Source of the DNA: Macrostomum lignano
Lineage: Eukaryota
Reading direction: 5' to 3'
Assembly: GCA_002269645.1 (NCBI GenBank)
Contig: NIVC01000986.1
Location: 248,001 to 312,000, forward strand
Length of the DNA: 64,000 nucleotides
A program made the translations under genes and the position numbers. Positions 17,141 through 43,209 of the stretch are shown here, piece by piece. The notes below the pieces were generated by a model, which saw nothing but the letters and a program-made list of their open reading frames with translations, was not told the DNA's origin and did no database searches. The stretch's first letter is position 1, and each line of letters starts with the position of its first letter.

Positions 17141-17469
17141 TTACGTGAAAATCAAACGTGAAAAGGTGTAATAATTTCAATATTTGCCATAAATCCTAAT
17201 TTTACATGAATGTACTCTATTTTATTTTTAGCTCTATACTAAATTACTAACTATTAATAAGTTTTTGTTTAAGTATGACTTCCGATTGTAGAATACACGC
17301 AAAAATAGTTCCGGGGATTGGAGTTCCCCGGGTTCAAAATCCGCGGGTTTCAACAGCTTGTCTTATAGAAGCGAAGGTCTTTTTGTCATAGACAGTTGCA
17401 GCGGACGCGAAATGAAGTCAATCTTATAGAAGCGAAGGTCTTTTTGTGTTAATAGGTATTGTTGACTAC

Positions 17470-17790
17470 AAATCGGTGTACACACATATCGGGAGAGTGT
17501 ACACTCATATCGGGAGAGTGTACACTCATATTGGGAGAGTGTACACTTGTATTGGGAGAGTGTACACTCATATTGGAAGAGTGTACCTTCGGCTCGGGAG
17601 GGGGCGCCCGCGGCGTACATTTCGGGGGGCCCGGACGGCGCTTGGTACCTGTGGCTCGAGTGCCATATGGTAGGGTGTACATGTCGGTGGGGTCACCTGC
17701 GGCATACATGTCGGGAGGGTTGCCTGCGTCATACATATCGGGGCGCCTGGACGGGGCTCGAGTGGTGTACTCTTTGTGTGAATGTATTCT
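17470..17790. mobile_element. Diverged fragment related to the TIR of element A
   Basis: Shares CATATCGGGAGAGTGTACACTC arrays and CACCTGCGGCATACATGTCGG(G/T)AGGGT(T/C)GCCTGCG with 42680-42960. Confidence 0.7.
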
Positions 17791-19470: not shown

Positions 19471-21190
19471 CTAGGGGTTTAACTTGGCAATTTTTCGGCA
19501 GCTGTCGTTGCCCTTCAGGCCATCAGATCTTCGCTTGCCAACGAGGGAAGGACGATTGATCTCTGCAGTGAAGTTCTTAAGAAAGCAGTTGAGAAGGCGG
19601 AAGGAAAACTGCCGAATCACTTGCCTGGGAGAGTGTTTAGAGCAACGAAAGCGACGCGATGCGAATTCGCTGAATTCTGCATCTTGACAATGACCAGTGC
19701 AGCAAAGATCTGATGCGACTTGCCGCTGAGAAGCTTCTGAAGCAGATCGCTGCAGCCTCGAATGTTCTCAAAAGCGTTGAAGGCCGTCATGCACAAGATG
19801 AATGCTGAATCTGATGGGCAGCACAATCCTCCTCTGCTTAGCTGACGGACGAGGAACTGGTGCTTTGGAATGTCGCTCATGGAGGTCTCCAGAGTAGGAA
19901 GCTTCTCTTCACTGACAAGAAATTGCTGACAGTCCTTACAGCGCTTGCTGACAGACCTTGCCAAGTAGCCTGCGATATAAAACACCACATTCAGACAGCC
20001 CTGCTCGTTGCTACGCAAGACACTGCATGGTTCATCAGACACGTCTGCAAAAATTTCCGCCGCCATCACACTGGAATCGACATCTTCCTGCTCAACATCT
20101 CTCAAGAATGACTTTTTCAATCGTGTGAGGTCGAGCTTCGAGTGCTTTAACAATGAAGTCATTCTGATCTTGTTCTCCGACTGAATCACCTGCTTCGAGC
20201 TGATGAAGTACAACCCGCCGGACATCTGTCGGTACCTGCCAAACTGTCTCTCCAGTGGATCAGAGAGAAGCTTGCCGAGCAGAATGTATTGAAACTGGCC
20301 GGTTGAGAAAAGCCTCTCACACAACCTGGGAATCACAGAGCATGTCTGAATGAGGCTACCGAAGGTCTCATTTGTCAGACAATTTTTGCCCCCTGCTTCT
20401 GAACGCCACTCCTTCAGGAATGCCACGAAGTCGGAAAGATACTTGAGTTGCCAATCCTGAGCTCCCGTGATTGGTTCACTCTCGGGCTTCCTCAAGTGCT
20501 TGCCAGCAGATGGTGATCGAACGTTCAGGATGTCCCAAAGCTTCTTGATCTTGGAAAGAAACTTGGCCGTGCTGTTGAAGGTTGATGTGTCTACGTTCAC
20601 ACTCTGCATGGTTGAGTACAGCTGCAACGCAGAAACCGTTGTTTCATCAAACACAGCTGCGGCCAGAGACGCACTCGTTCTTTCAACATTCAGTGGGCGC
20701 AGAACCTTCTCTGTCAACCGGTAGGCGATCTTGGACGACTGGCCTCTCTCAATTTCAAACACGGCCTCGATGTCGCTAAACTTGGCGACGAAGCACTCCT
20801 GTCCATCCATGGTTGGGCAGTGAAACTCCCTCCGCCGTTGAAAATTATTATACACATTCTTGATGTTGTGGGTCGTATCCATCAGCAGGAAAATCTCCTT
20901 CTCTTTGTCACAGGGATGCTTCATAGTCAAACCGTCATCGTTAGCGGCAGACATCGAGTAAAATTTCCGATTGACGGCCGAATGGTCACAGGACAAAGCA
21001 ACGACTTCAAACCCGTTTTTCGCGACCGCCTCAATTACATCACCAGCAAGGCTACTCAGGTGGCTGGCTGTAAGACAGTTGACCGGAAAAAGACCAACGA
21101 CATCCTGGTAGGACCCACCGATTGACTTGACGAGAAACGCCAGAATAGAGGAAGCCACATTGCCATCGCTGCTGAGACCATATATGGAGT
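19471..21190 (-). mobile_element. P-element/THAP9-family transposase, 5'-truncated, with a frameshift near 19650
   Basis: Motifs VALSCDH, DTTHNIKN (DxxH), WDILNVRSP, SDPLERQFGRYRQMSGG, FYIAGYL and GGLCCPS. The C-terminus (CSKH...NCFLKNF...RKIAKL*) continues in another frame to TAG 19471-19473. The THAP domain and first catalytic Asp are not seen. Confidence 0.85.
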
Positions 21191-21660
21191 GGAGATTGTT
21201 GAGATAATAAATTATACAAATTAATGTAAATTATCAATATTGTTGATACTGATGTGTGTGAATGTCTCTTGTCCATCGTGCAGGTTCCGCTCCTACGGTT
21301 GATCAATGGGGACACCTTCAATGTCAACCAGAAGTATCAATCGATAGTGAGTCACCATTGGCGAGACAGACTACTCATCATGGCTGGTCACGACCCTGTG
21401 AATGCGTACGACCCCGATGTACGGAGACGTCTTCGGCATGGTCACACGTTGCAAGGTCGACTCGTCACGGTGCTGTGCGTTGGGCATCCGCTATACGGGA
21501 CGTACGAATGTGACGGGACGTGCGAGCCTGTACGAGATCAAGTAGGTGATCCCATACGCGATTGATTGCAATTGTTTGACTGCTTAATTCCTTTTCGCGG
21601 CATTATTATTAGCAGCAGAAGCAGCAGCATTTATAGCTCAGCATTTATAGCGTCATTTCT

Positions 21661-21691: not shown

Positions 21692-22170
21692 GGGTGGTGG
21701 GCGGAAGTCGTCAGAGGCCTTAAGCTTCGTCTCCTGCGGGAGAACGACAGCGGGGCGGTCGATGGTCAGCCGATGGGCCAGCTCCGTGTAGCGGCTACGA
21801 ATGCCATTGCAGTTTAACTGCAAGAACGGGAGCTCTGGGCTTGGCTGATCGTCGACGGTCGACTTGCGCTTCTTGCGTCGCGCTCTGGTCGACCTGCTGT
21901 CACTGCCGTAGGACACGGTGGAGGTTGTCCTGGGGTTGCTCGGTCGAAAAGGATGAGGATGATCTGCGAATGTGTGGACCATTAGTCATTTCCGAGCTTT
22001 CGCTCAGGTCCAGGGGCTCCCGGGGTCCTGGCCGATTGCTCATGTCGGCCGTTTCCCCTTCTCGGAGGATGTCCACAGGCCCCCAACGGCCGCCGACGGC
22101 CCCGACGGCCCCGCCGCCGACGCCGACGGCCGCAGTCCGCCGACGGCCCCTCGCCGCCCTGGTGACTCGT
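21691..22170 (-). mobile_element. Inverted 5' fragment of an APE-type non-LTR retrotransposon (start of the endonuclease)
   Basis: LQLNCNGIRSRYTELAHRL...QETKL, homologous to the start of 23690-24865; ends at the (CAG)10 tract 21661-21690. Confidence 0.8.
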
Positions 22171-22172
22171 AG

Positions 22173-23626
22173 CGGCGGCGCCTCCTTCCACGTCCTCCGC
22201 ACTGCCTACGTCGCCACCGTGCGTGCTATTGCCGACTACGCCTGCGGAATCTGGGGTGCCTTTGCGGCGCCGAGCAGCAGGCTTCTCATCGAACGGCAAC
22301 AGTTCTGCTGCGCCAGGATCATCTCGGGGTGCATTAAGCCCACGAACGTCAGGGCGCTCCTCGCGGCCGTAGACCTGCCGCCCATCGGACACCTGATCCT
22401 GGAGAGAGCGGCGACCTTGCGGGAACGGGCTCTGAGGCTGCCCGGGGGAGGTCTCGGTGCACCAGACTGCCGCTAGACCCTGCCCGCCCCGCCTGAAATC
22501 CCGTGCTCACGAGGCATGGCTACGGGAGCAACACCCGGTGGATGACCGGGTCCTGCTGGAGAGCGACTACCGCAGGCCTTTCCGTGGTTGCTGGAGGCGC
22601 GCCGCACTGGAGCTCGGCATCAACGCCCTCGAGCCAGCGGGGAAGCGCGCCCCCTTCCCGATGCCCGAGCCGCCATGGCAGTCACCCAGCGAAGTCAGCT
22701 TCGACACCAGCCTGCAGGTCACCTGCGGCCGCAAAGTGCCGGACAGCATCAGACGGGAGAGAGCCATCAACGCCCTGGAATCCAGACCTCAACACGATAT
22801 CGTCATCTGGACTGACGGCAGCGCCACGGACGGCTGCCGGGACGGCCGTGGCGCGGCCGTCCTGCACACCCTCCTGTGGGGCGAAGTACACTCGACAGCC
22901 GCTGGCTCCATCTGCAGCAGCACGACGGCGGAGCTAGCGGCTATAGCTCTAGGCATCCGCCGCTGCCTACAGCTCCAGCAACCACACGGGGGCAGCATCG
23001 ACATTCTCACGGACAGCATGGCGGGCATCCTCACCCTGCAGCGCGGGCCAGCTGACCAACGCGAGCCCATGGGACAGCTGGTGTGGAGCCTGCTCAGTCA
23101 AGAAGCTCGCCCGGTCCGCATTACCTGGGTGCCGGCCCACGTCGGCGTCGATGGCAACGAAAGAGCCGACAAGGCGGCGAACCGGGCTTCGGACCTGACG
23201 CAAGACCAGCCCATCGCCTTCGAAGCCGCCAGGGCTGCCATCAAACGAGCCAGGCGACACCTCGATCTCAAGCTCTTGAATCGTAGCTCGCCCTGGAAGC
23301 GCTACGGCGGCCTGACTCGTGGCGAGACGGTGGCGGTTTGCCAATTGAGGGCCGGCTGCAGCACAGCCTGCGCGGCCACCCGCTACCGTATCGGCCTTAC
23401 CGAGACTCCGCTCTGTCCGGACTGCGGAGACGAAGACACAGAAGAGCACCTCCTGCAGCAGTGTCCACGCGGAGACTCCGCCCGCCTTGCTCACCCTCTC
23501 GACCTCAACGACGCGGGCGGAATCTGCCGGTACCTGAGGATGATGGGGCGGCGTGCAGGTCGCCCTCCCCCCCAGCCGCCGGACAGCGGCGACGCGGGGG
23601 CTGCGTAGAAGAAGAAGAAGAAGAAG

Positions 23627-23629
<3 letters not shown>
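22173..23629 (+). mobile_element. 3' part of a non-LTR retrotransposon (RT thumb, RNase H, CCHC finger) with an (AAG)7 tail
   Basis: IVIWTDGSA, AELAAI, ILTDS, WVPAHVGVDGNERADKAA and CPDCGDEDTEEHLLQQC; frameshift near 22460; TAG 23606-23608 followed by (AAG)7. Confidence 0.9.
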
Positions 23630-23662
<33 letters not shown>

Positions 23663-23664
<2 letters not shown>

Positions 23665-26600
23665 GGGGCCTACGGCCGACCTTCAAGAGGTGCCCCTGTT
23701 CTTAACTAACGGACCGTACCACCACCGAGCCTGCGAAGAAGACCAAGAGAACGCGTCGAACTCCGAAAACCTTCTATCCGTCATGCGACTCCGCGGCGGC
23801 AACAGTGACATTTCAGTCCACCGCCGCCGGCCGCGTAGGAGACACAGGAGAGCAGCGTCGCGCAAAGCCGAGCCGGCCCAAGAGCTCCTCGTGCAGTTTA
23901 ACTGCAATGGCATCAAAAGCCGTAATACGGAGCTGGCCCACAGGCTGGCCTCCCTGCGCCCCGCCGCTATACTCCTTCAGGAAACCAAGCTTAAGAAAGA
24001 AGAAGATTATAACCCGCCGTGGGGATACGTGGTGGCCTCCAGGGAAGACGGAGTGCATAACGCCGGCCCCGATGACCGCGCTGTCGTGACACCTGCTCAG
24101 CCAAATCGGCCACCCGACACTAACGGTACAGGCGCCGCCGGGACACGACGCCGTACCAACCCGCGCTGCCGGCTGAGATTCCCAGAACTCCGCGAAAACT
24201 GGTGCGCCGGATGTCGCAGCGGCCGTACCGCCTGCAGCGTCCGTTTCACACCATGGCATGGCGCAGACAACCAATCTGTTCAAACCAGTGCATCCGGACG
24301 AGAAATCACCAGCACGCCACCGCCAGCCCAGTCCACTATCCCAAAAACCAACAAAAAAATTACAGGACGGGGAGGTACTATGGTGCTCGTCCGCGATTAC
24401 GTCCAGTACGACAGACTCAAAGTCGATAGAGAACACGACCTCCTGGACGTTGCCGCCTGCCGCATCCGCCTCAAAGGACAACAGCCGATCGTGATAGCAT
24501 CTATCTATGCACCACCCTCCAGCTGCCAACGCCCCGATAACACCTGGCAACCCAGCTTCACCAATCTCTCGACTACGGGTAGAGTCATCCTCGGAGGCGA
24601 CTACAACGCACACGGAAGCTGGGACCGCAACATTGATGAAGATCTCAGAGGCCAGACCGTCGACGAGTGGGTCGCCCGCAATGGGCTCGTCATCTGCAAT
24701 ACCACCTGCCACACACGCACCTGCCCCAGTACTGGCCGCCTCAGTAGCCCAGACGTGACCATCTGTAGTAGCACCATTGCCGGATCCATCACGGACTCCT
24801 GGAAGACGCTAACAGACTGGGGAAGCGATCACCTGCCGATCGTTTTTCGGCCTCCCAGCCTCTAACACCGGAAAGACCCGTCACTGCGGGCAAAAACGCT
24901 GGATCTATAAGAAGGCAGACTGGGGAGCCTTCAGGGAGTCGCTAAATACCTGGGCAGAATCCGAACGCAACGACACCACCTTAAACACAGAGGCCACACG
25001 CCTTGCCGAAGCCATCCTGAACGCAGCAAGACTTGCCATCCCGCGCAGCTCTGGGAAAGAGACGAGACGCCTGCCGTTCTGGAACGACGCCTGCGAGGAG
25101 GCCTCCAAAGCTACACGTGCCGCGAGACAATCCGCAGAAAAAGAACCGACACCATAAAATATTATTGCCGCAAACAGAGCCCGCCACAACGCCTCAGGCT
25201 GTCTCCGGAGGGAGAAAAAAGCCTTCCTGTTCGACAAAGCGGCAAATTTCAGCCAGGACTCGGACATTTTTGGCTAACTCCGCGCTATGAGAGGCGATGG
25301 TTTTAAAACTCCGGACCCGGCTGCCATCGTCAGGGCCGCCTCCCCAGACTCGCCGGAGCGCACCGCCCGCACTAACAAAGAGAAGGCCGAACTCTTTTGC
25401 CAACTCTACGCCGAAGTTAGCCGAGTCCCCAGACGGAAAAATGACTCGGCCATCAGATACGAAGCGAACGAGGCCACCACGCCTATGGGTGACCCCCAAA
25501 CAGACGGCCCGGACGCCCCTTTCGAGATCGACGAGCTCCGCGCCGCTATCCGATGTCTCAAATCAGGGAAGGCTGTGGGAACCGACGGTGTCTCCAACGA
25601 GATGCTTAAACGCCTCCCGCCGGCCGCTGACAAAGCCTTACTCAGCCTCATCAACCGCACCTGGCGGGAGGGCAAAACACCTACCAGCTGGCGAATTGGC
25701 ACCATTATACCGATCCAGAAAAAAGGGAAAGACGCCGCATCACCGGATAACTACCGCCCCGTCGCACTTACCAGCTGCATCGCCAAGTGCGCGGAGCGCA
25801 TGGTTCTGGCCCGTCTTAATTATGACCTGGAGAGCCGTGGCGGCCTCACGCCCACTCAAGCTGGTTTTCGTCGCGGTCGTAGCACCGAGGAACAGCTCGC
25901 GCGAGTCTGCCAAGCCATTTTTGACGGCCTCGAGAGTCTACCGGCGCTACGCAGCATCCTCTGCCTCCTCGACTTCTGCCGAGCGTATGACAGAGTATGG
26001 CGCCTGGCCCTGTATGCCAAAATGCACCGCATGGGCATCCCCAAGCGCATCATCCGCTGGATCCGCGGCTTCCTGTCGGACCGTCACAACGCAGTCCGCT
26101 GGGTTAACGCCACGAGCCGCAACAGAGTCTTCCGCGAAGGTCTGCCACAGGGCAGTGTGCTAGAGCCCACGCTGTGGAATATCTATGTCAACGATTTAGC
26201 CCAAGCAGTCGCCGAGGCGAACCCTTTGGTCAGCCTCAGTCTCTACGCCGATGACTCGGCCTTACTGGCGACCGCTCGCACACTCGACATCTGTGCCAGA
26301 GAACTCCAACCAGCCCTGGATGCAGTGGCCGACTGGTGCCGAGATTGGAAAGTCTCCATTAGCACTGGGAAATGCTGCTACTCCACCTTCACTCTAGCGG
26401 CAAATGAAAACAACGGCAAACGGAGAGTGAACCTCCAGATCAACGGCGACAAGCTTGCCTTCGATCCAACACCGACCTTCCTGGGACTCACTCTTGACGA
26501 CAGCCTAAGTTTCAGCCACCATGCATCAAAGATCCGTAAAAAGATGGCCGCCCGCAGAAGACCTCTCACTGCCCTCGCTACCAGATCGGCCGGTGCGGAC

Positions 26601-28010
26601 AGTCAGATCCTCCGCATGGCTTACATCGCCATCGTTCGCTCTGTTGCCGACTACGCGTGCGGGGTCTGGGGGTCCTTCACTGCAGCCAGCTCTAAGCTGC
26701 TGATCGACCGCCAACAGCACAGCTGTGCGCGGATCATCACTGGGTGCCTCCAACTTACTCACATCCGGGACCTGCTTGCGGTGGCGAACCTGTCGCCCTT
26801 CAGCCATCTGGTGCTACAACGTAGTGCGACGCTCAGAGAAAGAATCCTACGTCTCCCGCAGGACACTCCAGCACTTCAGGTCGCCAAAATGGACACCCGA
26901 CCACGACTGAAGAATCGAGCCTTTGAGAGCCACCAGAGAACACCGAGAGACCCAAAGGACATCGTCACCGTCCTCCACGACTACCAGCGAGAACACCGTG
27001 GTTGCTGGCGCCGCGTTAGCCAAGAGCTCGACAGACAGGGGTTGCTCAACGGCCCCACCAGGGAGCCCGCTCCGCAGCCCCAGCCGCCGTGGACGGCCCA
27101 CGAAGCGATCACCTTCGACCTCAGCTTGGCTACGCAGTGCAGCCGCAGCCAGCCCCAGAGCCTCCGCAGCGATACTGCACTGAGGTACCTCGAGGAGCGC
27201 GGCTCCCACCCGGTCAGCGTTTGGACTGACGGCTCGGCCGCCGGGGGCACATCGGACGGCACCAGCGCAGCGGTGATCATCACCCCATGCTGGGGTCGGG
27301 TCGTCACCAGCGCTGCAGGGAACATCTGCAGCAGCACCCAGGCGGAACTTCAAGCCATACTGCTTGCCATCCAGAATACCAGAGAGCATCAATGTATCGA
27401 CATCTTTACTGACTCCCAGGCGGCCATTTACAACATCATGGCGGGCCAGCGCAGCAACAGCAGAATTGTCTCCGAAATTTGGAACCAGAGTAGCGATCAC
27501 TCCATCCGCATCACCTGGATACCGGCTCACTGCGGCATCCCCATGAACGAACGCGCAGATAGGGCGGCTAGATTGGCGACCGCAGATCAGAGCGACCATG
27601 GTGCCCCCATCATGGCAGCCAGCGCTTACCTCTGCCGGAAAAGACGTGATCTAGACCTCGAGCTTTGGGGCCGTAAGGCGCCATGGCCAAGACTCCCAAC
27701 CTTGCCGAGGAAACTTGAGGTCCTGGTCAACCAGCTCCGCGCCGGCTGCAGCAACCTTGCCGCCGCCACTAGACTCCGACTCGGCCTGTCCGACTCCGAC
27801 GTGTGCCCGGACTGCGGAGCTCGCGACACCGAGCAGCACATTCTTTTCGACTGCCCACGAGGGTTCGCGGCCCGCCCCGGCGAACAAGACGCACTCCTGG
27901 TTGACGCGAGCCTCACCATCAACCTTCTTCGCAGGCTGGGGCGCATCTAGCGCCCCCGTCCCTTGCAGCCCAGCTGACATCGAGACGTGCGGTGCAGAGA
28001 GAGAGAGAGA
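23663..28010 (+). mobile_element. Near full-length single-ORF APE-RT-RNaseH-CCHC non-LTR retrotransposon (I/Ingi-like group), degenerate
   Basis: APE motifs (QFNCNG, LQETKL, GGDYNAH, PDVT, GSDHLPI), RT motifs (YRPVALTS, QAGFRRGRST, LDFCRAYD, GLPQGSVL, YADD), RNase H (WTDGS, QAELQAI, FTDS, WIPAHCG) and CPDCG..EQHILFDC. One frameshift at a T-run near 24845 and in-frame TAA stops near 25153 and 25275. Confidence 0.93.
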
Positions 28011-28487: not shown

Positions 28488-29580
28488 AATAAATAGAAAG
28501 CTTAATATCAACATTTGAATGTGATTTCAATTTCTAACAACTTCAACGCGTTTCGCACGCCATGGTGCATCGTCAGGATTTTATTAGAACGATTTGAGAA
28601 ATTGCGATTGAAAGCGATTGATTAAATATTGGTTTTTGCAACGTACACAGGTAAGGAGGGTAAGAATGAAAACAATTGATTACAACTTGGCTTTAACAAC
28701 ATACATAGGTATAGTAGGTAGGAGAGAGAATTATAGATTGAGAATGAAAGTTAAACCAAATGTACACAATTCTTGTCCAGTGGTCAAAAGGCAGAATCAG
28801 GGGCGGTAGCTAGCTTAGGTAATTGAACGTCAAGCTAAGTGTACACAGCGTGCACGACTGTGTCACTCACTGTTCAGAAAACGCGGAGAACGTGACCTGC
28901 ACCACTATGTTGTAATTGGGTGTTGAGATTCGGGGTCTGAGCTTTTATGTGCAGGGCCTCGAGAATTCTAAGTTTGGCGTCAGTATGGCTTTGGTCAATG
29001 ATTTTAAAGTGTTCTTCTGGTTTGCAGTCATTGCAGTTAGTGCATTCAAGGAGGTGAGTTTGTATAGCGGATGGTTTGAGCCAGTGTTCCCTGATCCTCG
29101 TGTGTAGGTGTCTTTTGGTTTTCCCCACGTAGGAGACGCTCTGGTCCACAGAGCAGTTAAATTGGTAGACAACACCTGCACGCAGAGTACAAGGAACACG
29201 CGACTTTAATCTGCTAACAAAGTTCCCAATCTTGTTCGTGTGGAAGACGACCCGGATGTTACGATTGAAAGAGGCAAAGAATAACCTACGCATTCTGTTT
29301 TTAAAGGCTAGAGATGGAGGTCCGAGGAAGGGGAGACGCAGAATGGGTTCAAATTCTTCAGTGGTGACAGATTGCTCAGGTTTTTGTTTGGTGATTTTGT
29401 CCGAGATGAACTTGTTGACGATTTTTTGGACCAGACAAACGGGGTAGTCATTTTGCAATTTCGCAATTTCTCAAATCGTTCTAATAAAATCCTGACGATG
29501 CACCATGGCGTGCGAAACGCGTTGAAGTTGTTAGAAATTGAAATCACATTCAAATGTTGATATTAAGCTTTCTATTTATT
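28488..29580 (-). mobile_element. 5'-truncated Penelope-like element: GIY-YIG end of the ORF (28874-29458) with an inverted pseudo-LTR copy
   Basis: GVVYQFNC...YVGKTKRHLHTRIREH and LRILEALHIKAQTPNLN; a 120-bp inverted repeat 28488-28607 / 29461-29580 abuts the truncation point. Confidence 0.88.
28540..28581 (-). ncRNA. Minimal hammerhead ribozyme motif in the PLE pseudo-LTR (second copy on + at ~29486-29528)
   Basis: CTGACGA, stem II GCAC/GTGC, GAAA, palindromic ACGCGT, then GTT; stem I pairing is weak. Confidence 0.65.
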
Positions 29581-30950: not shown

Positions 30951-33370
30951 CACTCTTACTCAAATACAATAATCGGGCTGTAATAGATCAACCAATTAAT
31001 AGTTTTAACTGTCAAACTTGTCCTCATAGATGCCAAAGGTGTGTGATTATAATTGTCAATGCTGCTTTGCTAGTGACTGTAATCAAAACTGCTAACATTG
31101 TGTATGTATATATGTATGTATGTATGTATGTATGTGTGTGTGTGTGCGTGTGTGTGTTTGCGCACGGGGCATTTGTTGGGCCATCCGCGTACAACGGGAC
31201 CCGCACTGTTGGGCCAAAAAATGTTGGGACTGTCCCATCAAGTCCGTCCAACACTTCCAAAAAACTTACAATAGCAGCTCAAAAAAATACTCTTTGGATT
31301 CAGCTCGACAGCCTCTTTTTGATGGTGCAACTCATTTTTAATAGTTTTACTTTCTGAGTCCATAATTAAGCAAAAACTGGCGTCCCAATAATGAAAAATG
31401 ATACAAAATTCGACCAAATCACTATTGGGACACTGAAATGGCTAATCTGCTCCCGCATATTTTTATTGGTTTTTTCTCATATTTTTACTAATAGTAGATT
31501 TCAAGCGCATTCATTTGCTGCAGTCTTTGTTTCAAGACTTATATACATAGCATACATTAAATACATACATAGCAAAACATAGCAAAATACTTTTAAGGGT
31601 ATTTTATTGTCAAAGGATGGTTCTGGATGGAGATAAACCTAAAGAAATGACAAGGGCTTACATGTACTTTTGACTGTGATGGGCATCAGTACTCTACACG
31701 AACTAAATTGTTAGGACAGTGTTGCAGTGTTGAATACAACAGCCCACTCTTGTTAGGACTCATGCTATTGACTGCTGCGCGCATTCGATATTCTATAAAT
31801 TGTTGGGACTGTGTGCTAGAGTGTCGTTTACAAAAGCCCACTCATATTAGGACTTACCCCGTACATGTTAGGACTAAGCCCTACCCCCCTGTGTACATGG
31901 CTCCAATTTACCAGAGTCCCCTTGCTAGTTAAGTGTACATTTATTTTTTGGTCTATTATTGACGCCACCCCGCAAACGTACGGTAAACAAAATTGGCATG
32001 TACTCGCTATGCTGAAATCAATGGTCAACTCTGCCTCTGCCATGGCACCCGAGTCACCATGGTATGGAAAGGAACAGCATGGAATGGCACAGCGAGAAAC
32101 ATGTAAGTGGTATTAAAAAACTTTGTCGGAAACAAGAAGCATTTATAATTTAAATGCTATAAAAAATACTGCTCCTGCTAAGCAGTACCTACCTTTACTT
32201 CAGGTATATCACCTTTGATCAACTGCCATGTGGCGCAATTGCCAAAGGATCCGTCGACTTTAACCGGTAAGCTGTAAAAGCTTTGAGTAAAACTTGACAT
32301 TTCGTCTGAATCCATTGACATTCAATAGCCTACGTGTCCAACCACAAATATTATAAGTTTTGTACTTTTAACTCTCAGATTGGGTCTTAGCAGATTCTAT
32401 AGCTATGCATGCAAGGGCCCCTCAGAGGAGATGCTTAAACACTGCAGTGCATTTTTCCTAGCAATTATTGGGACACGAAGTGTTGGGCCACTGTGTGTGT
32501 GTCTAGTTTTTTCCGCATTTGTTAAGTCACCTAAAGAACTCAATTAATAAAGGGCTCCAGAACAAATTGATGGGCAAACGGATGACACACTGCACAGAGA
32601 CTTGTTGGGACATATTAAAAACAGCTTATTTTAGAATGGGTACACTTTACTAAAGTAGAATGCTCCTACAGAAAGCTGCAAGCAAACTAGCATCTTCTGG
32701 AGCTGACATGCAGAGAAGAATGATTTTGTCGTCCTTGAAATCACTAAATAGATATGCGAAATCGATCTTTTGCTAATCCCACCACAGGTTCCAGTGAAAA
32801 GAAGAAACGAAACCCATTGACTAAATTGGCAGTCGACTCAATCGATGCCGACTGCAACGGACCTGTCAGCTTCGAACTCAGGAGAGCAGCTAATAGTCTA
32901 CGAGCGTAATGCTGGATGCCAGAGTTCTCTAAATAACGAGACTCCTGTTTTCTCACTCGACCGGAATTTGTTGTTTAATCTGCTTAACTAATCTCTGCGT
33001 TTTAGTTTTTCAGTTTCACTGTCAATTTTAGGTTTTTTCCTAAGCGCAAGTGTAATTGAATTTTTTATTCATATTAGTCAGGCATATTGCGTACAGCATT
33101 ATAGCGTATTAGTAAAGGTAAAGGTAAATAGACTGCTTGTAACTAGTTTTTCCTTCATGTGGATTGGCTTTAACGAAGCCTTTTGTATTTCAAGTAATGC
33201 TGAATTCGCTGGACTGAGGACAATATAGTTACACGATGTTACGCTATTACTTCACTTTCAATAGATCATACTATTAGTATAGGACGTGCTTTTTTATTTG
33301 AATGTATGCTTTTTTTCATCATTTAAATGCTAAAAATACTTAATAGGTCATTGCACTGTGTGTATGTGTG

Positions 33371-34530
33371 ACTACTAAGGGCCGGCAGATCCGTTGATTT
33401 TGGGAGGGGGGTGGGTGTCAACCCTCCTCGCCTCTCATTGGCGCGCGCGCCGCAGGCGCGTGGCGCCAAGCGCCATCCAGGCGCGCCAATCAGGCGCCCA
33501 TGCCGCAGGCGGCCCTACCGACATGTACACCCTCCCCAGCCGCAGGCAACCCTACCGACATGTATGCCGCAGGCGCACCCTCCCGATATGTACCCCGATA
33601 TGCCCACCCTCCCGATATGTACCCCGATATGTTTGCCCTCCCTCCAGAGCAGCAGGCGCCCATGCCGCAGGCGCCCCACTCTCCCAAGCCGCAGGCATCC
33701 CGAGTGTACACTCTCCCGAGCCGCAGGCACCCGAGTGTACACTCTCCCATACCGCAGGCACCCCGAGTGTACACTCTCCTCAGTACACTCTCCCGATATG
33801 TCGTCAATGATATTAGGCTAGTGAAAACTACTTATAGTAGGTGAAATTGAGTATATTTACATAAAAAGTATAAAAAACATATTGGTAGGTGCGAATAATG
33901 ATGCATAATGCATCATATTAAAATGTACATATTGGAGCAAAATAGGAATATGAGCAGCAAAAAAAACACAACGTAGACGCATATTATATTGACAGAAAAG
34001 CGGGTGAAATAGACAAAATAATACAAAGCGGGTACTGTAAGCGCTAATAAAACATAGGTGGAAATACACACAAGTATAATAATACAGGAAAATTACATAG
34101 CATATAATGTAGGCAGATTTTAAACATTACATTTTGCATATTAACCCGCAGGCACAAATTTCAATGCATAGGATAAAATACACACACTGGAAGTTAAGTA
34201 TAATACAACATATGTATGCAAAATTAAGCATATAATGTAGGTGCAAAGTAAAATATCCAGCCCAGGATATTCGAGACACGCCCCCAGAGCCAGGGCCGGG
34301 GGATCCCAATGTACAGTGCGGGCAGAGTAACATAGAGAAATTCAATTCCTCCCCAGGGCCGGGGGATCCCAATGTACAGTGCGGGCAGAGAGGAGTAACA
34401 GAGACCGCCCCAATGCACAGTGGAGGTAGCAGACCGCATACAAAGAGAATTCTCTCCAGGGGAGCTTCCAAATAGGTTTTATTATCTCAAGTGCCGCGCA
34501 GACAGGGGAATCTCAGTCAAGGGAGGCGTA
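33371..34530 (+). repeat. Left terminal inverted repeat of element A (~1.16 kb)
   Basis: Near-identical reverse complement of 41945-43128; the ORF track shows mirrored identical translations. Confidence 0.95.
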
Positions 34531-34538
34531 AGGCCTTA

Positions 34539-37500
34539 TCACTCCCGAAAGCCATACGGGCGGCTGCCAGACCCATACACTCGCTTAGTCATGACGCGCT
34601 GGAATGTCTTATCCATCTCCAGGGTCCGAATTGTACAGCTGGCCTTGTCGCGCCTGAACTGTGCCTGGGGCAGCCGTACAGTCCCCCCGTGGCGCAGAAT
34701 CTCCTGCAGCTCCGCCTCCCGCTCGGCAATCTCGGGCGTGACTCGGATGCCCTTGCACTTGAGCACCGAGTACAGCGACCTGTCGGGCTTCTCCACCACA
34801 TAGCGATAGAGCTTGGGGCCTCCCGTGGTGAACTGTACCATGCGGCAGCCGGCAGGTACCTCGTCAGTCCACTGCCCCAAACTCGATCCGCCTGGAGGCT
34901 CGTACTCGCCCGGAGAGCACCGATACACAACCCTGGGGAGGAGGAGAATAAAGTGTTTAGGGGAGCGAAGCAGACAGACAGACAGTGTGAAAAACTTACG
35001 AATCAGTATCGGCGTAAATGACGCGGGTTCCTAGACCCTCAAGAGCCTCGTAGAGTCGCAGCCGGGCGTGGGAGGTGGTGAAAACTCCAATAGGTACATT
35101 GGCGTACTTGAATGCCCGCTCGCCAGCAACACCAATTCGGGGCTTGTACTCGAGCATCATAAAGCTCTCCCCAACAGGCTCGCACGACTTGACCTTGATC
35201 GAGGGGTCTGTCAGGCGCTGCAGCCACGCCTCGTAGCTGTCCACAATCTCTGTGGAGGTCAAGTCATCCCGCTGGCAGAATTTGCCCCAGAGCCTGCAGG
35301 GAAAAATAAATTTTTGTATATCTGGCTACTGTAAGTAGAAAAACACGGGTCCCCACTGTACAAACCCCAACTTACGAGTTTAGAAAAATCTTGGCCACAA
35401 AGCGCAGGCCGGGATTTTCTTCCACCTTTTCCAGCCGGACGCCTTCGCGCTCGAAAAAGCTGGCCATGTAGGCAGCCTTGGCGTCCTCAGTCATTCCCGG
35501 CGAACCGCTAGACTCGGCTTTGAGCTTTAAAAAGGTGTTTACATAATCTGCAAACAGCCCGCTCCGAGTCTCGGTCCAATAGGCCAGGGCATGAACTGAC
35601 TGCAGCTTGTAACCCAACTGCAGGGCCTTGTGGAGCTCTGGGGTCGACCACGTGCCGCGGAGCATTCTCTCAGCGTCAGTGTGTGTACACTCGCTGCTGC
35701 ACTGTCTCCATGCAGACGCGGCAGAGGCCGAAAACCAGCTTCTTGCTAATCTTGGCGGGCAGTAGCGGGATGTGGAGATTGGTTGGCGGCAGAATCGACA
35801 CCTCGGCGATACCAAAATACCGGGCCAGCTGCTGCTCATCCAGTAGATGAGGCTCGGGGTGGTGAACCGGGTGCCCGACAGGGTACTTGTCAAACTTGTT
35901 GACAGTCGGGTAGAGCGACACCTAGAGAAAAGTAGTAGGCTAAACTCAAACGCATGTCAACTGTGTGTGTGTGTGTGTGTAAGAGAAATTTTTTAAAAAC
36001 TTACCACATCCCGATAGCGCAGCTCTACAGTCTCGGTGGCCTCGGCGTGCGGGACAAAAGCCTCGGTGCGACCGCCAAACAGGGCTTCCTCCAGGCGAAT
36101 AGGCTGCTGGACTGGCGCTCCCTCGCCCTGATAGTCGTGCTCCCACAGAACACGTACATTGTAGGCAGTGGAGTGCAGCCGGGTGAAGCGCTCAGTCTCC
36201 TCATAAATCGCCCGCATTGGCTGGTTCTTGAGCGGGTGCAGCACGTCGCCGTTGGGGAAGCACTTGGGACAGCCATGGAAGAAGCAGCCATGAAACTGCA
36301 GCACTGTCCTGGTCTCCGGGTCAAAGCCATCCACCTTACGGCCCATGGCGAAAGCCTCGCCGCCAGAATCGGCTGTCCGCAACCGGCCGCCAAACTCGGT
36401 TGCATTCAAATGTGCCAGCCAGCACCGCGCCTTGTGCGACTGTACATCGGACCGGCGGGAAATCACCCCAAGAGTGTTGGGCTCCATAAACTTGGTGGTG
36501 AAAACAGCCATAGCCAAGCCCGCAATGGTGTTGGATTGGACAAATGCGTCCAGTCCGCAAATGTCCTTAATCAGGCGGGTATACTTCAGACAGCCTTCCC
36601 GCAAAATTAACGTGTCCTGCAGGCAATAGTCCAGGTACTCCTTATTGAAATTAAACACCTGTCCCTCCTGCTTGGCCAGCCAGTCAGCGATGGAGTCGTG
36701 CTGCTTATTCTTCTTCCCGCCGTACATATCAATTGAGCAGTAGGGACCTACGTACCCCCAGTTTTGTGGCTGATTGAACACGTGCGGGAAATCTCTATTG
36801 GTCAGTTGGGTGCCCAAACCAAGCGCCTTTGGGAATTGCGCCAGACCAATAGGGATAAAGTTGAGGCTGTCCTTGAACGTGATCTTGTCGCACTTCATGT
36901 ACATTAGGCGGCTGTTCTGGAAGATCACCTGCGGCTTCTTCTTGGCCAGTCCGTTGAGTAGGGCGCCGAGCAGGAGGAATGCGTCATACGCAGAGCCATT
37001 GTGCGCAATTGCAATTGCCCCCTGCTTGAACACGCTAGTCAGCCAGCAGTAAAAGGCATCGATAGAGTGCAGTCCAACGGATACAAACTCTCGCATCCCA
37101 CAGGCACAGTCATTGTGGGAGACACAGCTCGTAAAATCCAGCGCCAGATTGCGTCCCGCAATGCAATTGGCTGAGCTGTGCAACCCCCCGCACACGCTGC
37201 AGCGGGGCCTGGGGAAGAGTTTGGGACACGCCTCGCAGGAGGTGGCAGCCGTAACCAAGTGTACCCGGTGCTGCTTGGTCCACGTACGTCTCGAAATCAT
37301 AGTAAACGTACGGGGCGCTAGACTCTTTGGCTTTGGGCGGGGTGACAAAGCACTCGTGGGTGGCAGTTTCGTCGTACTGCTTGCAGACTGGACACTTGGC
37401 GTAACCACACTGATGCTCGGGGGGCTGGCCTACTTTCAGTTCTTCTAGATAGCCACACGTGCCGCAAACGTGGACCGAATCACAGCGCGATCTGCCCGCC

Positions 37501-39875
37501 TTATTCTTGCGCTTGTGATTTTCTAGGCACTGAGCATTATAGCAATTTAGCCCGCAATCATGGCATCTTACATATGCGCGGTTTGCTTTGCAGTTGGAGC
37601 CCGGAGTCTTGCATGTACTGCAGGCATCAGCGCACTTGTGCTTCTCATAATTGCAATCGAAGGCCATCTCGCACTTGGCGCAGTAGTGATCGGAGCCGAA
37701 AAACGCAGGCAGCTTGGTGACCACATTAAAGTGCTGCTCGACCAGGTGCAGGTGCAGAATCTCGGTGCCAGGCAGGTTGAATATGCCCGTGTTGGCCTCC
37801 TCTGCCCTGTACACTCGTACACCAAAATCGTGGCCTGGATGCAGACGGTTCAGGGCCCGTATCGCCTCGGGCAGAACATCCACCCCAAAAGGACCGGCCT
37901 GCGAGACGATTTGATGAGTCTGTGTGGAGGCAAAATATTTCTTTTAGTAATCCTTATCGTAAAATTTCTTATCAGAAGATATATCTTTTAGTATTCCATG
38001 ATACTGGGTAAAAATTATATCTTTTAGTAATCCATGATAGTGAAATTCTTATCAGGAAAATCAGTGCACAACTCACGGTGTAGAGTCCAGCCTCAATTTG
38101 CAGCTCAGTTGCCAGCTTAGTCTGCTTGGGCGAATTGGCTCTGATTGTACGCCACACCTGCTCGGTGATGCGCTTGGCCACAAATTGCAGGTAGGCGCAG
38201 GCCACGACCAGAGCTCGCAGCAGGCATCTCTTGTCCGTGTTGGTGATGCGGACATAGTGCTTGGAGAAGGCATGCCGCTCCTCTAGATGTTTGTTCTCGA
38301 GAGCACATCCACCTCGAGGCACCCAGGCCTTTAGCAACCGGATAGAAAAGTTGCTCGACAGTACGCTTGCGTCTGACTGCACAATCTTGTCAATGTGCTT
38401 AAACAACAACTCTGCTGTCATGCGGGCTGCACGCACCGGGGGAGTGTGGGCTGCTTTGAGCATATTATCACTCTCGAATTTAGCCGCCATAAAGTCATCA
38501 CCAGCCAAATCCTGCTTGAAAACTTCGAGCATGCTGGCAAATTTCTCGCGTAAATCTTCGGTGTCATCTAGCTTTACAACATATTCAACGCCCTTTGCCC
38601 TAAACTTGGGGAGGTCGCGCTGATTATCCAGCCGGGCCGTAAAACCTGTAGGGGGAATGAAGGGGGAGTGTGAGTCAGCCCGTGGGTCTGTCTGAGGAAT
38701 GGGGGCTAGATAACTCACCCGGTCCGGTAACAGATTCAGGTTGAGCAGGCGGAACAAACGCGTCTGAAAAAACAAGGAGATAAAAAACCAGAAGAATCTG
38801 TCAATTCGTGGCACCCCAGGATCAAACTCCAACCGACTCATTGTTCACGCTCCCCCCCTTGCGCTCAGGCCCTCCCGCCGACACGCTCTGCAATTTTTTT
38901 AACCCCAGCCGCATCCCGCCTGGCTCTTTGTTAGCGCTCCCCCATAACCCCTCGCACGCATGCCCCCTGCCGAGACGTGTCTGCAATTTTTTTAACCCCA
39001 GCCCGCAGCTGTTATCCGGCCCGGCTCATTGTTAGCGCTACCCCGCCCGCACAAGCCCTGCTGCTGAAACGCTCTGCAATTTTTTTAACCCCAGCCGCAT
39101 CCCGCCTGGCTCTTTGTTTGCGCTACCCCTCGCACGCAAGCCCTGCTGCTGAAACGCTCTGCGACAGGGCTCTGCAACGCCCTGTCGCAGCACTCTGAAT
39201 TCCCGCATGCTCCTGCAGCTGTCAGAGCGCCCACCACTTTTTATCTGGCCTGGCTCTTTGTTTGCGCTCACGCATAACCCCTCGCATGCAAGCCCTCCTG
39301 TTGAAATGCTCTGCAATTTTTTAACCCTAGCCGCATCCGGCCTGTTCTTTGTTTGCGCCCCCTCTCTACTCAAACTCGCATGCCCTGTCGCAGCACTCTG
39401 AATTCCCGCATGCTCCTGCAGCTGTCAGAGCGCCCACCACTTTTTATCTGGCCTGGCTCTTTGTTTGCGCTCACGCATAACCCCTCGCACGCAAGCCCTC
39501 CTGTTGAAATGCTCTGCAATTTTTTTATCCCTAGCCGCATCCGGCCTGCTCTTTGTTTGCGCCCCCTCCCTACTCAAACTCGTAAGCTCCCTGTCGCAGC
39601 ACTCTGAATTCTATAGCCCGCATGCGCCTGAAGCTGTCACAGCGGCAAACCCCTCAACTCTTTGTTAGCCCCCGCCTGTCTAGTCTGCTCTTATCAACTC
39701 TCTATCGCGCCCCTCTTGCTCCTGCCCCTGCCAATTCATAGAAGCTCCCTGCTGCAGCAACTCAAACCCCGTCTAGACTGATATACAACCGGATAGAAAT
39801 TAATTAAAGCTTACCATAAAGACGTTGCCTCTTGTCAGCCAGGAAAGTGGTCGATGCTGCGCTGCGTTTAGCCAT
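34539..39875 (-). CDS. polB: Protein-primed DNA polymerase B (vOTU-like N-terminal region, exonuclease, VSR-like insertion), 7 exons, 2 frameshifts
   Basis: Exons 39875-39815, 38763-38719, 38645-38077, 37919-36005, 35921-35376, 35293-35000 and 34932-34539, all GT-AG and phase-compatible. Splicing rebuilds RDV/VSLYP, FLNS/LWGKF and YADTDS/VVY. Other motifs: YDFET, HNGSAYD, FKDSLNF, YCLQD, VDG...FHGCFFHGCPKC, FGGRTE, LGQWTDE, GPKLY. Frameshifts near 37280 and 35690. Confidence 0.9.
38850..39700. repeat. Imperfect ~60/190-bp repeats inside intron 1 of element A polB
   Basis: CTCTGCAATTTTTTTAACCC..AGCCGCATCC recurs about 5 times; ~39170-39375 is duplicated at ~39375-39610. Confidence 0.75.
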
Positions 39876-39919
39876 TTTGCATACAGAGAGAAGGATTATC
39901 TCTCTACCCCTGTTCTAGG

Positions 39920-40050
39920 GGTCCGAATATATACTAAAAACCTGCTTAGCTCGTCTATTATTGGCCAAATCACCAAAAAACCAACCAGAATCACTCAAAA
40001 TCACCCCAAAATCACACCCTCCCACCCTCCATCTGGGGGTATATAAAGCG
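39920..40050. promoter_or_regulatory. Putative divergent promoter region: TATA-like boxes for polB (minus, ~39925-39932) and for the PC4-like ORF (TATATAAA ~40039-40046); another TATA-like box at ~40676
   Basis: TATA-like motifs lie about 50-75 bp upstream of each ATG; inferred from position only. Confidence 0.5.
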
Positions 40051-40091
40051 CTGCGCGGCTGTCGGAGAGCTCTCTGCTGCTGCTGCTAATC

Positions 40092-40640
40092 ATGTCTTCT
40101 TCTATCGCTCTATACGAAAACTTTGTGGCGCGGAAGCCCACATTTGAAACGGAGCATGACTTAATTGAAATCCGTCGGCTCTACACCGACGAAGCTGGAG
40201 TGTGGAAGGACGGCTTCCCAGCAATCTATTTAAGCGAGGTCGAGTGGAAGAAGCTCGAAGCTGCACGCCCTGACCTGGAGGCTGCGGCACGTCTTCACGT
40301 GGACAAGAGAGTCGTGTTGGGCAGCTTCAAGGCGGCAGAAGCTTCACAGGGGAGGATTCGTTTGCGGCGCAATTGGCTTAATCGGGATCCAAAGTTCAAT
40401 TGGCGCTACACAATTGAATTCACGCCGGAACTGTGGCGCCGGATGTTTGCCGCCCGTTTGGGCAAGCTCTTCAAACCCAAGGCCCCGCCGCCAGCCAAAC
40501 GAGCCAGGACCGAGACCTCTCCGGTAGCCAGGACTGAGGAGGAGGAAGAAAATCTCCAGGATGTTCTCCAGGTTGCGGGTCTCAAACCCTACCAATCCCC
40601 GCCCTGGGAAAATCTGTTTAACGAGAGTCAGCGCTGGTAG
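40092..40640 (+). CDS. Protein with two tandem PC4-like (ssDNA-binding) repeats
   Basis: IEIRRLYTDEAGVWKDGFPAIYLSEVEWKKL matches the PC4 signature (IDIRxxY..G..KPG.KGISL...QW..L); a second copy is RIRLRRNW...TIEFTPELWRRM. Confidence 0.65.
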   Translation: MSSSIALYENFVARKPTFETEHDLIEIRRLYTDEAGVWKDGFPAIYLSEVEWKKLEAARPDLEAAARLHVDKRVVLGSFKAAEASQGRIRLRRNWLNRDPKFNWRYTIEFTPELWRRMFAARLGKLFKPKAPPPAKRARTETSPVARTEEEEENLQDVLQVAGLKPYQSPPWENLFNESQRW

Positions 40641-40752: not shown

Positions 40753-41751
40753 ATGTCCCGCCGCCGAGCTCTATCCACCCTCTGGGATAAAAACCGCCCA
40801 TCTGAAGAATTAGCCTCCCTCGACGGTGAAATACCCGAACATATAATCCCCATAGGCATAGAAAACGGCGGACTTGACTATCCTGAAAATTGGGGTGCTG
40901 ATATAGCCTTATCTTGGGCTTTGTGGGCTATTACCTACGATAGCGACCCGGGATCTGAGATTTTCGACATCCCGTGGGGTAATAGCTACGATAGCGACAC
41001 CGGGTCTGAGATTTTCGACCTCCCACCGCTGACTATCGGAGGGGGTGTGAACGCCGCCGCTGCCGACTCTGGTGCCTCTGCCGCTGCCGCCCCTGCCACC
41101 TCTGCCGCCGATGTCGACTCTGCCGCTGCCGACTCTGGTGTCTCTGCCTCTGCCGCCCCTGCCACCTCTGCCGCCGATGCCGACTCTGCCGCTGCCGACT
41201 CTGGTGTCTCTGCCTCTGCCGCCCCTGCTGCCGCTGCCGACTCTGGTGCTGCCTCCCCCGGTGTCTCTGCCTCTGCCGCCTCCAGCCAAGCCTCGATATC
41301 ATCAGCCACCACGATACTTCTCTTTGGTGATGAGGAAATGAATATGGCCGAGGAGATCGCCATGGTCCGCGATCGCTTTCCGCGTATTGTGGCCTCCTTT
41401 TTTCACCGCGATATCGAGTGGTTGAGGTCTCGCCACCCCGACGGCCTGCCTCCCCAAGACACCTTTGTCGAGGCCTTTAATCGGGTTCTCGATACTTTGG
41501 TGTCGAGGGGGGCTGACCTACGGGAGGTGTTGGAGGCAGAGACACTACATCAAGATTGGTTGATGGGGCGCAATTCGCATGCCTCCGACACTGAGGCATA
41601 TCTGGCCGGTCCGGGAGCGCGCCCTACTGAGTGGGATGCACCTATGGTAAGATATTACACTGTATACACAATTCGTCTTATCATATACAAAGCATATATT
41701 CTTTCTACATTAATTGTTTTAATTTCCCCATTGCAGTCGGCCGACTACTGA
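40753..41751 (+). CDS. Orphan protein of element A (acidic N-terminus, Ala/Ser/Asp repeats, helical C-terminus); possible terminal intron ~41647-41735
   Basis: Long ORF after a TATA-like box; GTAAGA donor and TTGCAG acceptor near the end. Confidence 0.6.
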   Translation: MSRRRALSTLWDKNRPSEELASLDGEIPEHIIPIGIENGGLDYPENWGADIALSWALWAITYDSDPGSEIFDIPWGNSYDSDTGSEIFDLPPLTIGGGVNAAAADSGASAAAAPATSAADVDSAAADSGVSASAAPATSAADADSAAADSGVSASAAPAAAADSGAASPGVSASAASSQASISSATTILLFGDEEMNMAEEIAMVRDRFPRIVASFFHRDIEWLRSRHPDGLPPQDTFVEAFNRVLDTLVSRGADLREVLEAETLHQDWLMGRNSHASDTEAYLAGPGARPTEWDAPMVRYYTVYTIRLIIYKAYILSTLIVLISPLQSADY

Positions 41752-41944: not shown

Positions 41945-43128
41945 CCTTACAGTCTCCCCTGACCGAGATTCCCCTGTCTGCGCGGCACTTGGGATAATAA
42001 AACCTATTTGGAAGCTCCCCTGGAGAGAATTCTCTTTGTATGCGGTCTGCTACCTCCACTGTGCATTGGGGCGGTCTCTGTTACTCCTCTCTGCCCGCAC
42101 TGTACATTGGGATCCCCCGGCCCTGGGGAGGAATTGAATTTCTCTATGTTACTCTGCCCGCACTGTACATTGGGATCCCCCGGCCCTGGCTCTGGGGGCG
42201 TGTCTCGAATATCCTGGGCTGGATATTTTACTTTGCACCTACATTATATGCTTAATTTTGCATACATATGTTGTATTATACTTAACTTCCAGTGTGTGTA
42301 TTTTATCCTATGCATTGAAATTTGTGCCTGCGGGTTAATATGCAAAATGTAATGTTTAAAATCTGCCTACATTATATGCTATGTAATTTTCCTGTATTAT
42401 TATACTTGTGTGTATTTCCACCTATGTTTTATTAGCGCTTACAGTACCCGCTTTGTATTATTTTGTCTATTTCACCCGCTTTTCTGTCAATATAATATGC
42501 GTCTACGTTGTGTTTTTTTTGCTGCTCATATTCCTATTTTGCTCCAATATGTACATTTTAATATGATGCATTATGCATCATTATTCGCACCTACCAATAT
42601 GTTTTTTATACTTTTTATGTAAATATACTCAATTTCACCTACTATAAGTAGTTTTCACTAGCCTAATATCATTGACGACATATCGGGAGAGTGTACTGAG
42701 GAGAGTGTACACTCGGGGTGCCTGCGGTATGGGAGAGTGTACACTCGGGTGCCTGCGGCTCGGGAGAGTGTACACTCGGGGTGCCTGCGGCTTGGGAGAG
42801 TGGGGCGCCTGCGGCATGGGCGCCTGCTGCTCTGGAGGGAGGGCAAACATATCGGGGTACATATCGGGAGGGTGGGCATATCGGGGTACATATCGGGAGG
42901 GTGCACCTGCGGCATACATGTCGGTAGGGTCGCCTGCGGCTGGGGAGGGTTGCCTGCGGCTGGGGAGGGTGTACATGTCGGTAGGGCCGCCTGCGGCATG
43001 GGCGCCTGATTGGCGCGCCTGGATGGCGCTTGGCGCCACGCGCCTGCGGCGCGCGCGCCAATGAGAGGCGAGGAGGGTTGACACCCACCCCCCTCCCAAA
43101 ATCAACGGATCTGCCGGCCCTTAGTAGT
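41945..43128 (-). repeat. Right terminal inverted repeat of element A (~1.18 kb)
   Basis: Reverse complement of 33371-34530, with a short extra duplication near 42945-42970. Confidence 0.95.
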
Positions 43129-43209
43129 TGTGTGTGTTTTCGTGTGTCAAAAAAAATTGCAAAATAAGTGCCCACCATTGTATACCGTACCAACAAGTTC
43201 CCGGTGCGT

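Follow-up and report, generated by a model that had tools for sequence, protein, structure and literature searches.

A stretch of 64,000 nucleotides of the Macrostomum lignano genome (assembly GCA_002269645.1, contig NIVC01000986.1, positions 248,001 to 312,000; hereafter the window) holds an element of 9,758 bp with 5'-ACTACT ends and a 6-bp target-site duplication (TSD) within TG-rich flanks. Its minus strand encodes a Polinton-type, protein-primed DNA polymerase of family B (pPolB) divided by six introns, and the evidence set out below supports all six as real spliceosomal introns. The terminal inverted repeats (TIRs) of 1,155 and 1,175 nt are identical at 1,150 of 1,155 aligned positions (99.6%), with one 20-nt gap in addition. 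The element is composed as follows (positions in the window; open reading frame, ORF; nuclear localization signal, NLS; very-short-patch-repair, VSR).

33365..33370, plus strand: left TSD (TGTGTG), a copy of the 6 bp beyond the right end
33371..34525, plus strand: left TIR, starting 5'-ACTACT
34539..34932, minus strand: pPolB exon 7, with the last part of Pol C, the KxY motif and the stop codon
34933..34999, minus strand: intron 6, 67 nt, phase 2, inside the Pol C motif
35000..35293, minus strand: pPolB exon 6 (PF03175 positions 382-462, under cut-off)
35294..35375, minus strand: intron 5, 82 nt, phase 2, inside the Pol B motif
35376..35921, minus strand: pPolB exon 5, its frame broken near 35704
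35922..36004, minus strand: intron 4, 83 nt, phase 0, inside the Pol A motif
36005..37919, minus strand: pPolB exon 4, spanning a Cys-rich region, Exo I-III and a VSR-like insert (frame break near 37277; PF03175 E=3.9e-13)
37920..38076, minus strand: intron 3, 157 nt, phase 0
38077..38645, minus strand: pPolB exon 3 (N-terminal region), with a Cys motif that we take to be OTU-like
38646..38718, minus strand: intron 2, 73 nt, phase 1
38719..38763, minus strand: pPolB exon 2, 45 nt, with a homologue in subfamily B
38764..39814, minus strand: intron 1, 1,051 nt, phase 1, holding repeats
39815..39875, minus strand: pPolB exon 1, 61 nt, basic, with a putative NLS-like function
39876..40091: putative divergent promoter region with TATA-like boxes, judged from sequence
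40092..40640, plus strand: gene of a PC4-like single-stranded-DNA-binding protein, 182 aa
40753..41751, plus strand: ORF3, 332 aa, Ala/Ser/Asp repeats, no assigned function
41954..43128, minus strand: right TIR, ending AGTAGT-3'
43129..43134, plus strand: right TSD (TGTGTG)

The introns had been proposed in a preliminary description, and the places and lengths given there (1051, 73, 157, 83, 82 and 67 nt, on the minus strand with GT(A/G)AG donors and YAG acceptors) are correct. Introns 4, 5 and 6 do interrupt the motifs Pol A, B and C, respectively, and exon 1 does read MAKRSA...KRQRLY, with a presumed NLS-like role. What does not hold is that removing the introns leaves one open frame: the exons sum to 3,824 nt, which is not a multiple of three, and stop codons occur from exon 4 onward. 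PF03175 was found in four exon pieces of the polymerase, in order and with one exceeding the cut-off, and 255 homologues were collected. The last 20 nt of the six introns are 55-90% pyrimidine. No match to group I or II self-splicing introns reached the Rfam gathering score between 33300 and 43200, and the mutual resemblance typical of introners is absent among the 10 pairs of introns 2 to 6 (the best pair was reached in 7 of 200 shuffles, the others in at least 19).

Bait searches and ORF lists reveal that the carrier lacks the virion genes of a Polinton and is a capsid-less and integrase-less element. Ten resident Maverick proteins were used as tblastn baits on 15 complete elements (13 polymerase-bearing and two non-coding): the three integrase baits gave no match in any of them and matched their control loci, and the seven baits for major and minor capsid, ATPase and protease likewise gave none, with protease absence being weaker since its bait had no control match. 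The element has little unassigned space. The PC4-like protein itself has no Pfam match and its nearest Atlas clusters are PC4 (0.86, a lead only); the PC4 cut-off is passed by its subfamily B orthologue and by a homologue in a resident Maverick, to which it is related at BLASTP E=9e-10. ORF3 gave no usable Pfam or Atlas match and is unmatched in several sister elements, and a PDB sequence search returned nothing. ORF3 may also contain an in-frame 90-nt intron (41647-41736), whose donor is kept in 5 of 5 sisters, with acceptor and frame less clear.

Conservation and splicing of the polymerase introns

A 1.2-kb query spanning introns 4 to 6 gave 96 candidates in the genome, of which 40 were scored; all 40 match, at 89-94% identity except for the window itself, and none of them is an intron-free copy. 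Introns 4, 5 and 6 are found in the same places with GT..AG ends in 19 of 19 fetched sisters (53-128, 70-89 and 65-74 nt, respectively), with 6-14 indels per ~230 intron bases. Sister copies are 89-95% identical. Of the upstream region, 15 of 17 tested stretches could be mapped, and in all 15 exon 1 has 61 nt and is followed by the donor GTAAGT, intron 1 measures 488-1,188 nt and conserves both its donor and its acceptor, and intron 2 measures 68-73 nt; intron 3 (138-271 nt) was found in 13 of them. The polymerase exons are under purifying selection, with ratios of nonsynonymous to synonymous substitution rates (dN/dS) of 0.05-0.11 against each of the 19 sisters and of 0.13-0.14 against three copies of subfamily B.

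Subfamily B has 55-75% protein identity per exon and a synonymous divergence of ~0.70, and its introns are unrelated in sequence. They lie at sites 4, 5 and 6 in all five stretches, at site 2 in four of five and at site 3, within a few codons, in three of five; an acceptor is located at most 2 codons from site 1, and one clear copy among six stretches has a first exon that is basic, homologous and followed by a donor in phase 1. All six sites therefore recur when intron positions are compared with relatives, as had been suggested, and this comparison supports the view that the six introns are old in the lineage and would be older than the separation of subfamily A from subfamily B. In a FastTree phylogeny with long-branch warnings, both subfamilies form one long branch among outside homologues, and the closest proteins outside Macrostomum lignano are 35-40% identical. 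The long spliceosome-dependent residence read from the introns at the outset is supported insofar as these are real and old; for intron 1 the support is comparative.

The RNA evidence consists of contigs from four public runs of four studies, guessed to be RNA as no record says so. It shows that the polymerase family is transcribed and spliced at introns 2 to 6, which are almost certainly genuine. Introns 2 and 5 are skipped in all four runs and intron 6 in three, with a matching loose end in the fourth. The 157-nt skip of intron 3 appears in three of the four runs at low depth with ends off by 1-2 nt, exon-4 loose ends being found additionally in runs X2 and X7, and intron 4 is bridged by a single 1,208-nt contig of run X7 that skips intron 5, too. 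GT..AG ends, a pyrimidine tract and exact removal, as expected of major (U2) spliceosomal introns, are thus all found for introns 2 to 6 in these guessed-RNA runs. The check over six junctions proposed in the preliminary description came out positive for these five and without a joint for intron 1. Contigs entering the 3' end of intron 1 reach a depth of 45-142, similar to the intron-2 joint (53-115), and further contigs extend from exon 1 into intron 1; the intron may be frequently retained, transcription may start inside it, or the joint may be hidden by the short, divergent exons 1 and 2. An in-frame ATG 15 codons upstream of exon 2, at the 3' end of intron 1, is present in 9 of 15 sisters and overlaps the branch-point region; it could be the start of a form without the basic exon 1.

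The positions of the introns are uneven with respect to conservation, which locally is at the 96th-98th percentile for sites 4 to 6 and at the 4th-16th for sites 1 to 3 (P ~0.001 for at least three of six sites being so conserved, in a post hoc test with a reference model lacking some stretches). For comparison with other polymerases we used 86 related contigs, many of them partial (80 metagenomic and the first 6 of 57 viral). Unbroken motifs were found in 69 (Pol A), 65 (Pol C) and 66 (Pol B) of these, using search patterns that favour unbroken Pol B. A crude gap test flagged 28 contigs, two of which were inspected closely together with eight other contigs lacking motifs, and two of the remaining 26 were looked at as well. 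In the two closely inspected flagged contigs, L181 and L195, which are metagenomic and encode distant pPolBs, Pol A seems to be split by GT..AG introns that lie 5 and 7 nt downstream of the site in the window. One of them, L195, has at least three introns and adjoins integrase, capsid and protease genes.

Judged from these contigs, intron-split pPolBs appear to be uncommon, though not unique, and to have been gained independently. The intron density had been called unusual for a Polinton pPolB; this agrees with the core genes being called intronless in the accessible parts of two studies (PMC8097293; 10.1101/2022.07.12.499685) and needs qualification for the two relatives that are also split. 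Such introns nonetheless appear to be rare in relatives, with those two among 86 contigs having them at other sites. The claim that ORF-based screens would miss the gene proved too strong, given that UniProt already contains automated models for sister copies in which several of the junctions are joined.

Spread of the elements and source of the integrase

Eighteen related elements were tested for TSDs, and all 15 with both ends found have a 6-bp duplication of their own, as do 2 of 2 elements of subfamily B, which end in ACTACG. A genome search with an end motif gave 214 matches. The 100 of them that were listed yielded 36 paired ends, and the span is 7.5-10.5 kb for 32 of the 36. One end pair on C271 spans 40 kb. 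Dozens of such elements are present in the Macrostomum lignano genome. This dispersal bears on whether the polymerase could be a domesticated host gene or a decayed Maverick remnant, with introns that are annotation artefacts or were inserted after settlement, a view favoured by the broken window copy and by C. elegans remnants of pPolB plus TIRs without integrase (10.1101/2024.01.15.575659, accessible part). This view is highly improbable, because the copies are scattered, each with a TSD of its own and almost identical TIRs, and because there are six common sites across two diverged subfamilies, splicing joints and purifying selection; the RNA-like joints, TSDs and selection have already largely refuted it.

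The window copy has two frame breaks, one near 37277 in exon 4, directly after Exo I, and one near 35704 in exon 5 that is exclusive to it. At either site 37 of the stored stretches covering it differ from the window (a number that includes repeats and corresponds to ~27-28 distinct places), with three sharing the first break and none the second. The flanks of these three stretches are identical to each other and unlike those of the window, which makes them one other insertion site; the first break is therefore real, was carried to a second insertion site and is unlikely to be an assembly error. The second could be either a true mutation or an assembly error. We rejected extra micro-introns or programmed frameshifts as explanations of the breaks, since hardly any sister has them and the dominant RNA-like contigs, which carry sister alleles, lack them. 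By its sequence, the window copy is predicted to be polymerase-dead.

Gene-less derivatives with the same ends have likewise multiplied: of 10 additional central pieces, 9 are palindromes without coding sequence. The elements thus insert with 6-bp duplications, and both polymerase-dead and gene-less copies have spread. Window positions 17442-19176 contain a fragment of a non-coding palindromic derivative that is 91% identical over 1.8 kb to L049, and this match led us to reject the TIR-like repeats at 17.4-19.2 kb as a second coding segment. Another locus, L041/L042 (G000:C1090:36570-47863), comprises 11.3 kb with a clean 6-bp TSD and two mirror copies of the element's right part that turn within the polymerase gene, and looks like a template-switch product; the subfamily B copy L103 has a mirror repeat as well. 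At L118-L120 (G000:C106:353964-375023) a capsid-type Maverick is nested in a non-coding ACTAC-ended derivative, each with a 6-bp TSD. This 21-kb ACTAC-ended arrangement was dismissed as an autonomous form of the element because the nested Maverick is AGTAG-ended with its own TSD.

Elsewhere in the window are P-element/THAP9-like transposase domains (19617-21230), a long interspersed nuclear element with reverse transcriptase and RNase H, accompanied by part of a second copy (21700-27950), and, by eye, a GIY-YIG-like ORF (28874-29470).

We propose that the element is probably a reduced Polinton, replicated by its own spliced polymerase and inserted by a DDE integrase borrowed in trans. From what is known of Polinton and adenovirus biology, the spliced protein (~1,275 codons with a basic N-terminus) would enter the nucleus, and the polymerase would copy an extrachromosomal linear form from the terminal repeats by protein priming. 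The (ACT)2 end would serve the jumping-back step, a role assigned to Maverick end motifs in the accessible text of PMC8097293, and the PC4-like protein would handle displaced single strands. A retroviral-type DDE integrase acting in trans, most simply that of resident capsid Mavericks, would then insert the copy, and the palindromic gene-less derivatives with the same ends would exploit the system one level lower. Without any need to work outside the host nucleus, such a lineage could gain and keep spliceosomal introns. Points that we count for action in trans are the occurrence of the first frame break at two insertion sites and the non-coding palindromes.

Candidate donors are at hand. Resident ordinary Mavericks have capsid, ATPase, integrase and a single-ORF pPolB, and the genome contains 117 matches to one Maverick integrase and 73 capsid matches. 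At least four capsid Maverick families are present (e.g., L075-L076, L087, L089, L092, L094 and L114-L115), with single-ORF pPolBs of 1,125-1,478 aa.

Several observations weigh against the proposal of a reduced Polinton with a borrowed integrase. All capsid Mavericks with ends examined start 5'-AGTAG and not ACTAC, and their pPolBs are unrelated to that of the element (BLASTP E>=1.6e-4, separate in the tree), so that no matching helper was identified among them. The shared frame break could reflect gene conversion instead of replication in trans, and both polymerase activity and the extrachromosomal form are things that we infer. On the RNA side, no joint across intron 1 was seen in the contigs of the four runs, which are only guessed to be RNA, were used as contigs and have no DNA run as control. 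The genome searches can miss genes, as a Pox_A32 search gave no match although an ATPase over that cut-off exists (a false negative), and they were combined with examination of a minority of the end-motif places.

The mismatch of the ends keeps an unseen ACTAC-ended partner as a live rival for the role of integrase donor. The element would then be one part of a multipartite Polinton whose second part carries the integrase, perhaps with virion genes, in intron-split form. Besides the ends, which are unlike those of every capsid Maverick examined, this idea gains from the facts that most of the 214 end-motif matches are unread and that intron-split genes are detectable only per exon in searches of the kind that gave the false negative. 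Yet the ~30 ACTAC-ended stretches seen in whole or in part contain the polymerase cassette, non-coding palindromes, flanking DNA of no relation or known elements in nested position. Their sole match to an integrase bait (in L130, E=0.003) is not accepted as the element's own, as it is probably a nested Gypsy-type piece with 41 dispersed matches, and we consider the two-part arrangement unlikely.

The same mismatch, along with the many long terminal repeat (LTR) integrases in the genome, would fit a donor other than a Maverick, be it a DDE element of another kind (an LTR retrotransposon or one of Ginger type) or the host itself. This is very unlikely, considering that the PC4-like gene has a homologue in a resident Maverick and that, in the accessible part of PMC8097293, a strict 6-bp TSD is a Maverick hallmark and an AC-type end is already known from one fish Maverick group.

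A wider version of the reduced Polinton with a trans-acting integrase would join three tiers, with capsid Mavericks supplying the integrase and perhaps capsids, a polymerase-only satellite gated by splicing, palindromes riding on both, and Pol A as an intron hotspot. We regard this combination as possible but rather doubtful. Most transcripts may, on this joint reading, retain intron 1, which lies between the polymerase and the basic exon at the N-terminus, so that a nuclear polymerase would be made only in cells that remove it; the germline intron of the P element is an analogue of such a splicing gate. Repeated independent introns in Pol A of unrelated pPolBs may, by the same reading, mark a hotspot of intron gain.

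Comparison with Polintons and other pPolB elements

In its insertion and its proposed replication, the element behaves like a Polinton. It shares pPolB, long TIRs, a 6-bp TSD and trinucleotide-repeat ends with Polintons/Mavericks as described in the accessible text of Barreat and Katzourakis 2021 (PMC8097293), where intact vertebrate Mavericks are 12.7-24.6 kb long with intronless ORFs and no introns observed. Compared to these, it is only 9.8 kb in size, lacks integrase, capsids, ATPase and protease, contains six introns and ends in 5'-(ACT)2 in place of the (AGT)2, (AG)3 or (AC)3A given for Mavericks there. The PC4-like gene is common to the element and resident Mavericks. While a protein-primed family B polymerase, long TIRs and 6-bp TSDs are thus those of a Polinton, we file the element as Polinton-derived and not as a member of the group because integrase, virion genes, a 5'-AG-type end and intronless core ORFs are lacking.

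Within the polymerase, a VSR-like motif between the exonuclease and polymerase domains recalls the pPolB2 Polintons of a marine nematode and of molluscs, which have a VSR endonuclease insert (Jeong et al., 10.1101/2023.08.22.554363, accessible part). The motif is also found in relatives, one of which is labelled a very-short-patch-repair endonuclease; the Pfam Vsr family matched neither P0001 nor P0016 and the relative P0123 only at E=0.24, and our pPolB tree was built without the reference sequences of Jeong et al. As far as the accessible text goes, that survey counted only integrase-linked polymerases (10.1101/2023.08.22.554363), and elements of the present family would have been filtered out by this requirement. 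More generally, surveys that require a single ORF or an integrase-linked pPolB would skip the element.

Spliceosomal introns inside Maverick-type elements are also known from nematodes (Widen et al., 10.1101/2022.07.12.499685), where the accessible part places them in captured host cargo genes with an intronless core, whereas here the core polymerase is split. Polinton-like elements with spliceosomal introns further include the dinoflagellate eupolintoviruses, but their introners are, in the accessible text, young, repeated and mostly acquired after integration (PMC12166617), in contrast to six introns that appear old, are shared between subfamilies and do not resemble each other. Algal polinton-like elements contain group I introns (PMC12220804, accessible part). 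Neither the element family nor spliceosomal introns in an animal Polinton pPolB were found described in the literature searched, with subscription papers, Repbase and supplements, which may list them, lying outside the search.

That Maverick core genes are intronless has served as a working rule, to which the element is a checked exception. It also captures a step from virus to transposon in a living family in which virion and integrase genes were lost, introns were gained and the polymerase remained under selection. RNA interference and tissue RNA data exist for the host Macrostomum lignano. Since the family is also expressed, open Polinton questions become testable there, including linear protein-primed replication, an integrase acting in trans and a splicing gate on a self-synthesizing transposon. 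Capsid-less pPolB linear plasmids and transpoviron-like elements are similarly TIR-bounded pPolB replicons without virion genes. The element differs from these in that many integrated copies exist, flanked by 6-bp TSDs, and in that it depends on the nuclear spliceosome.

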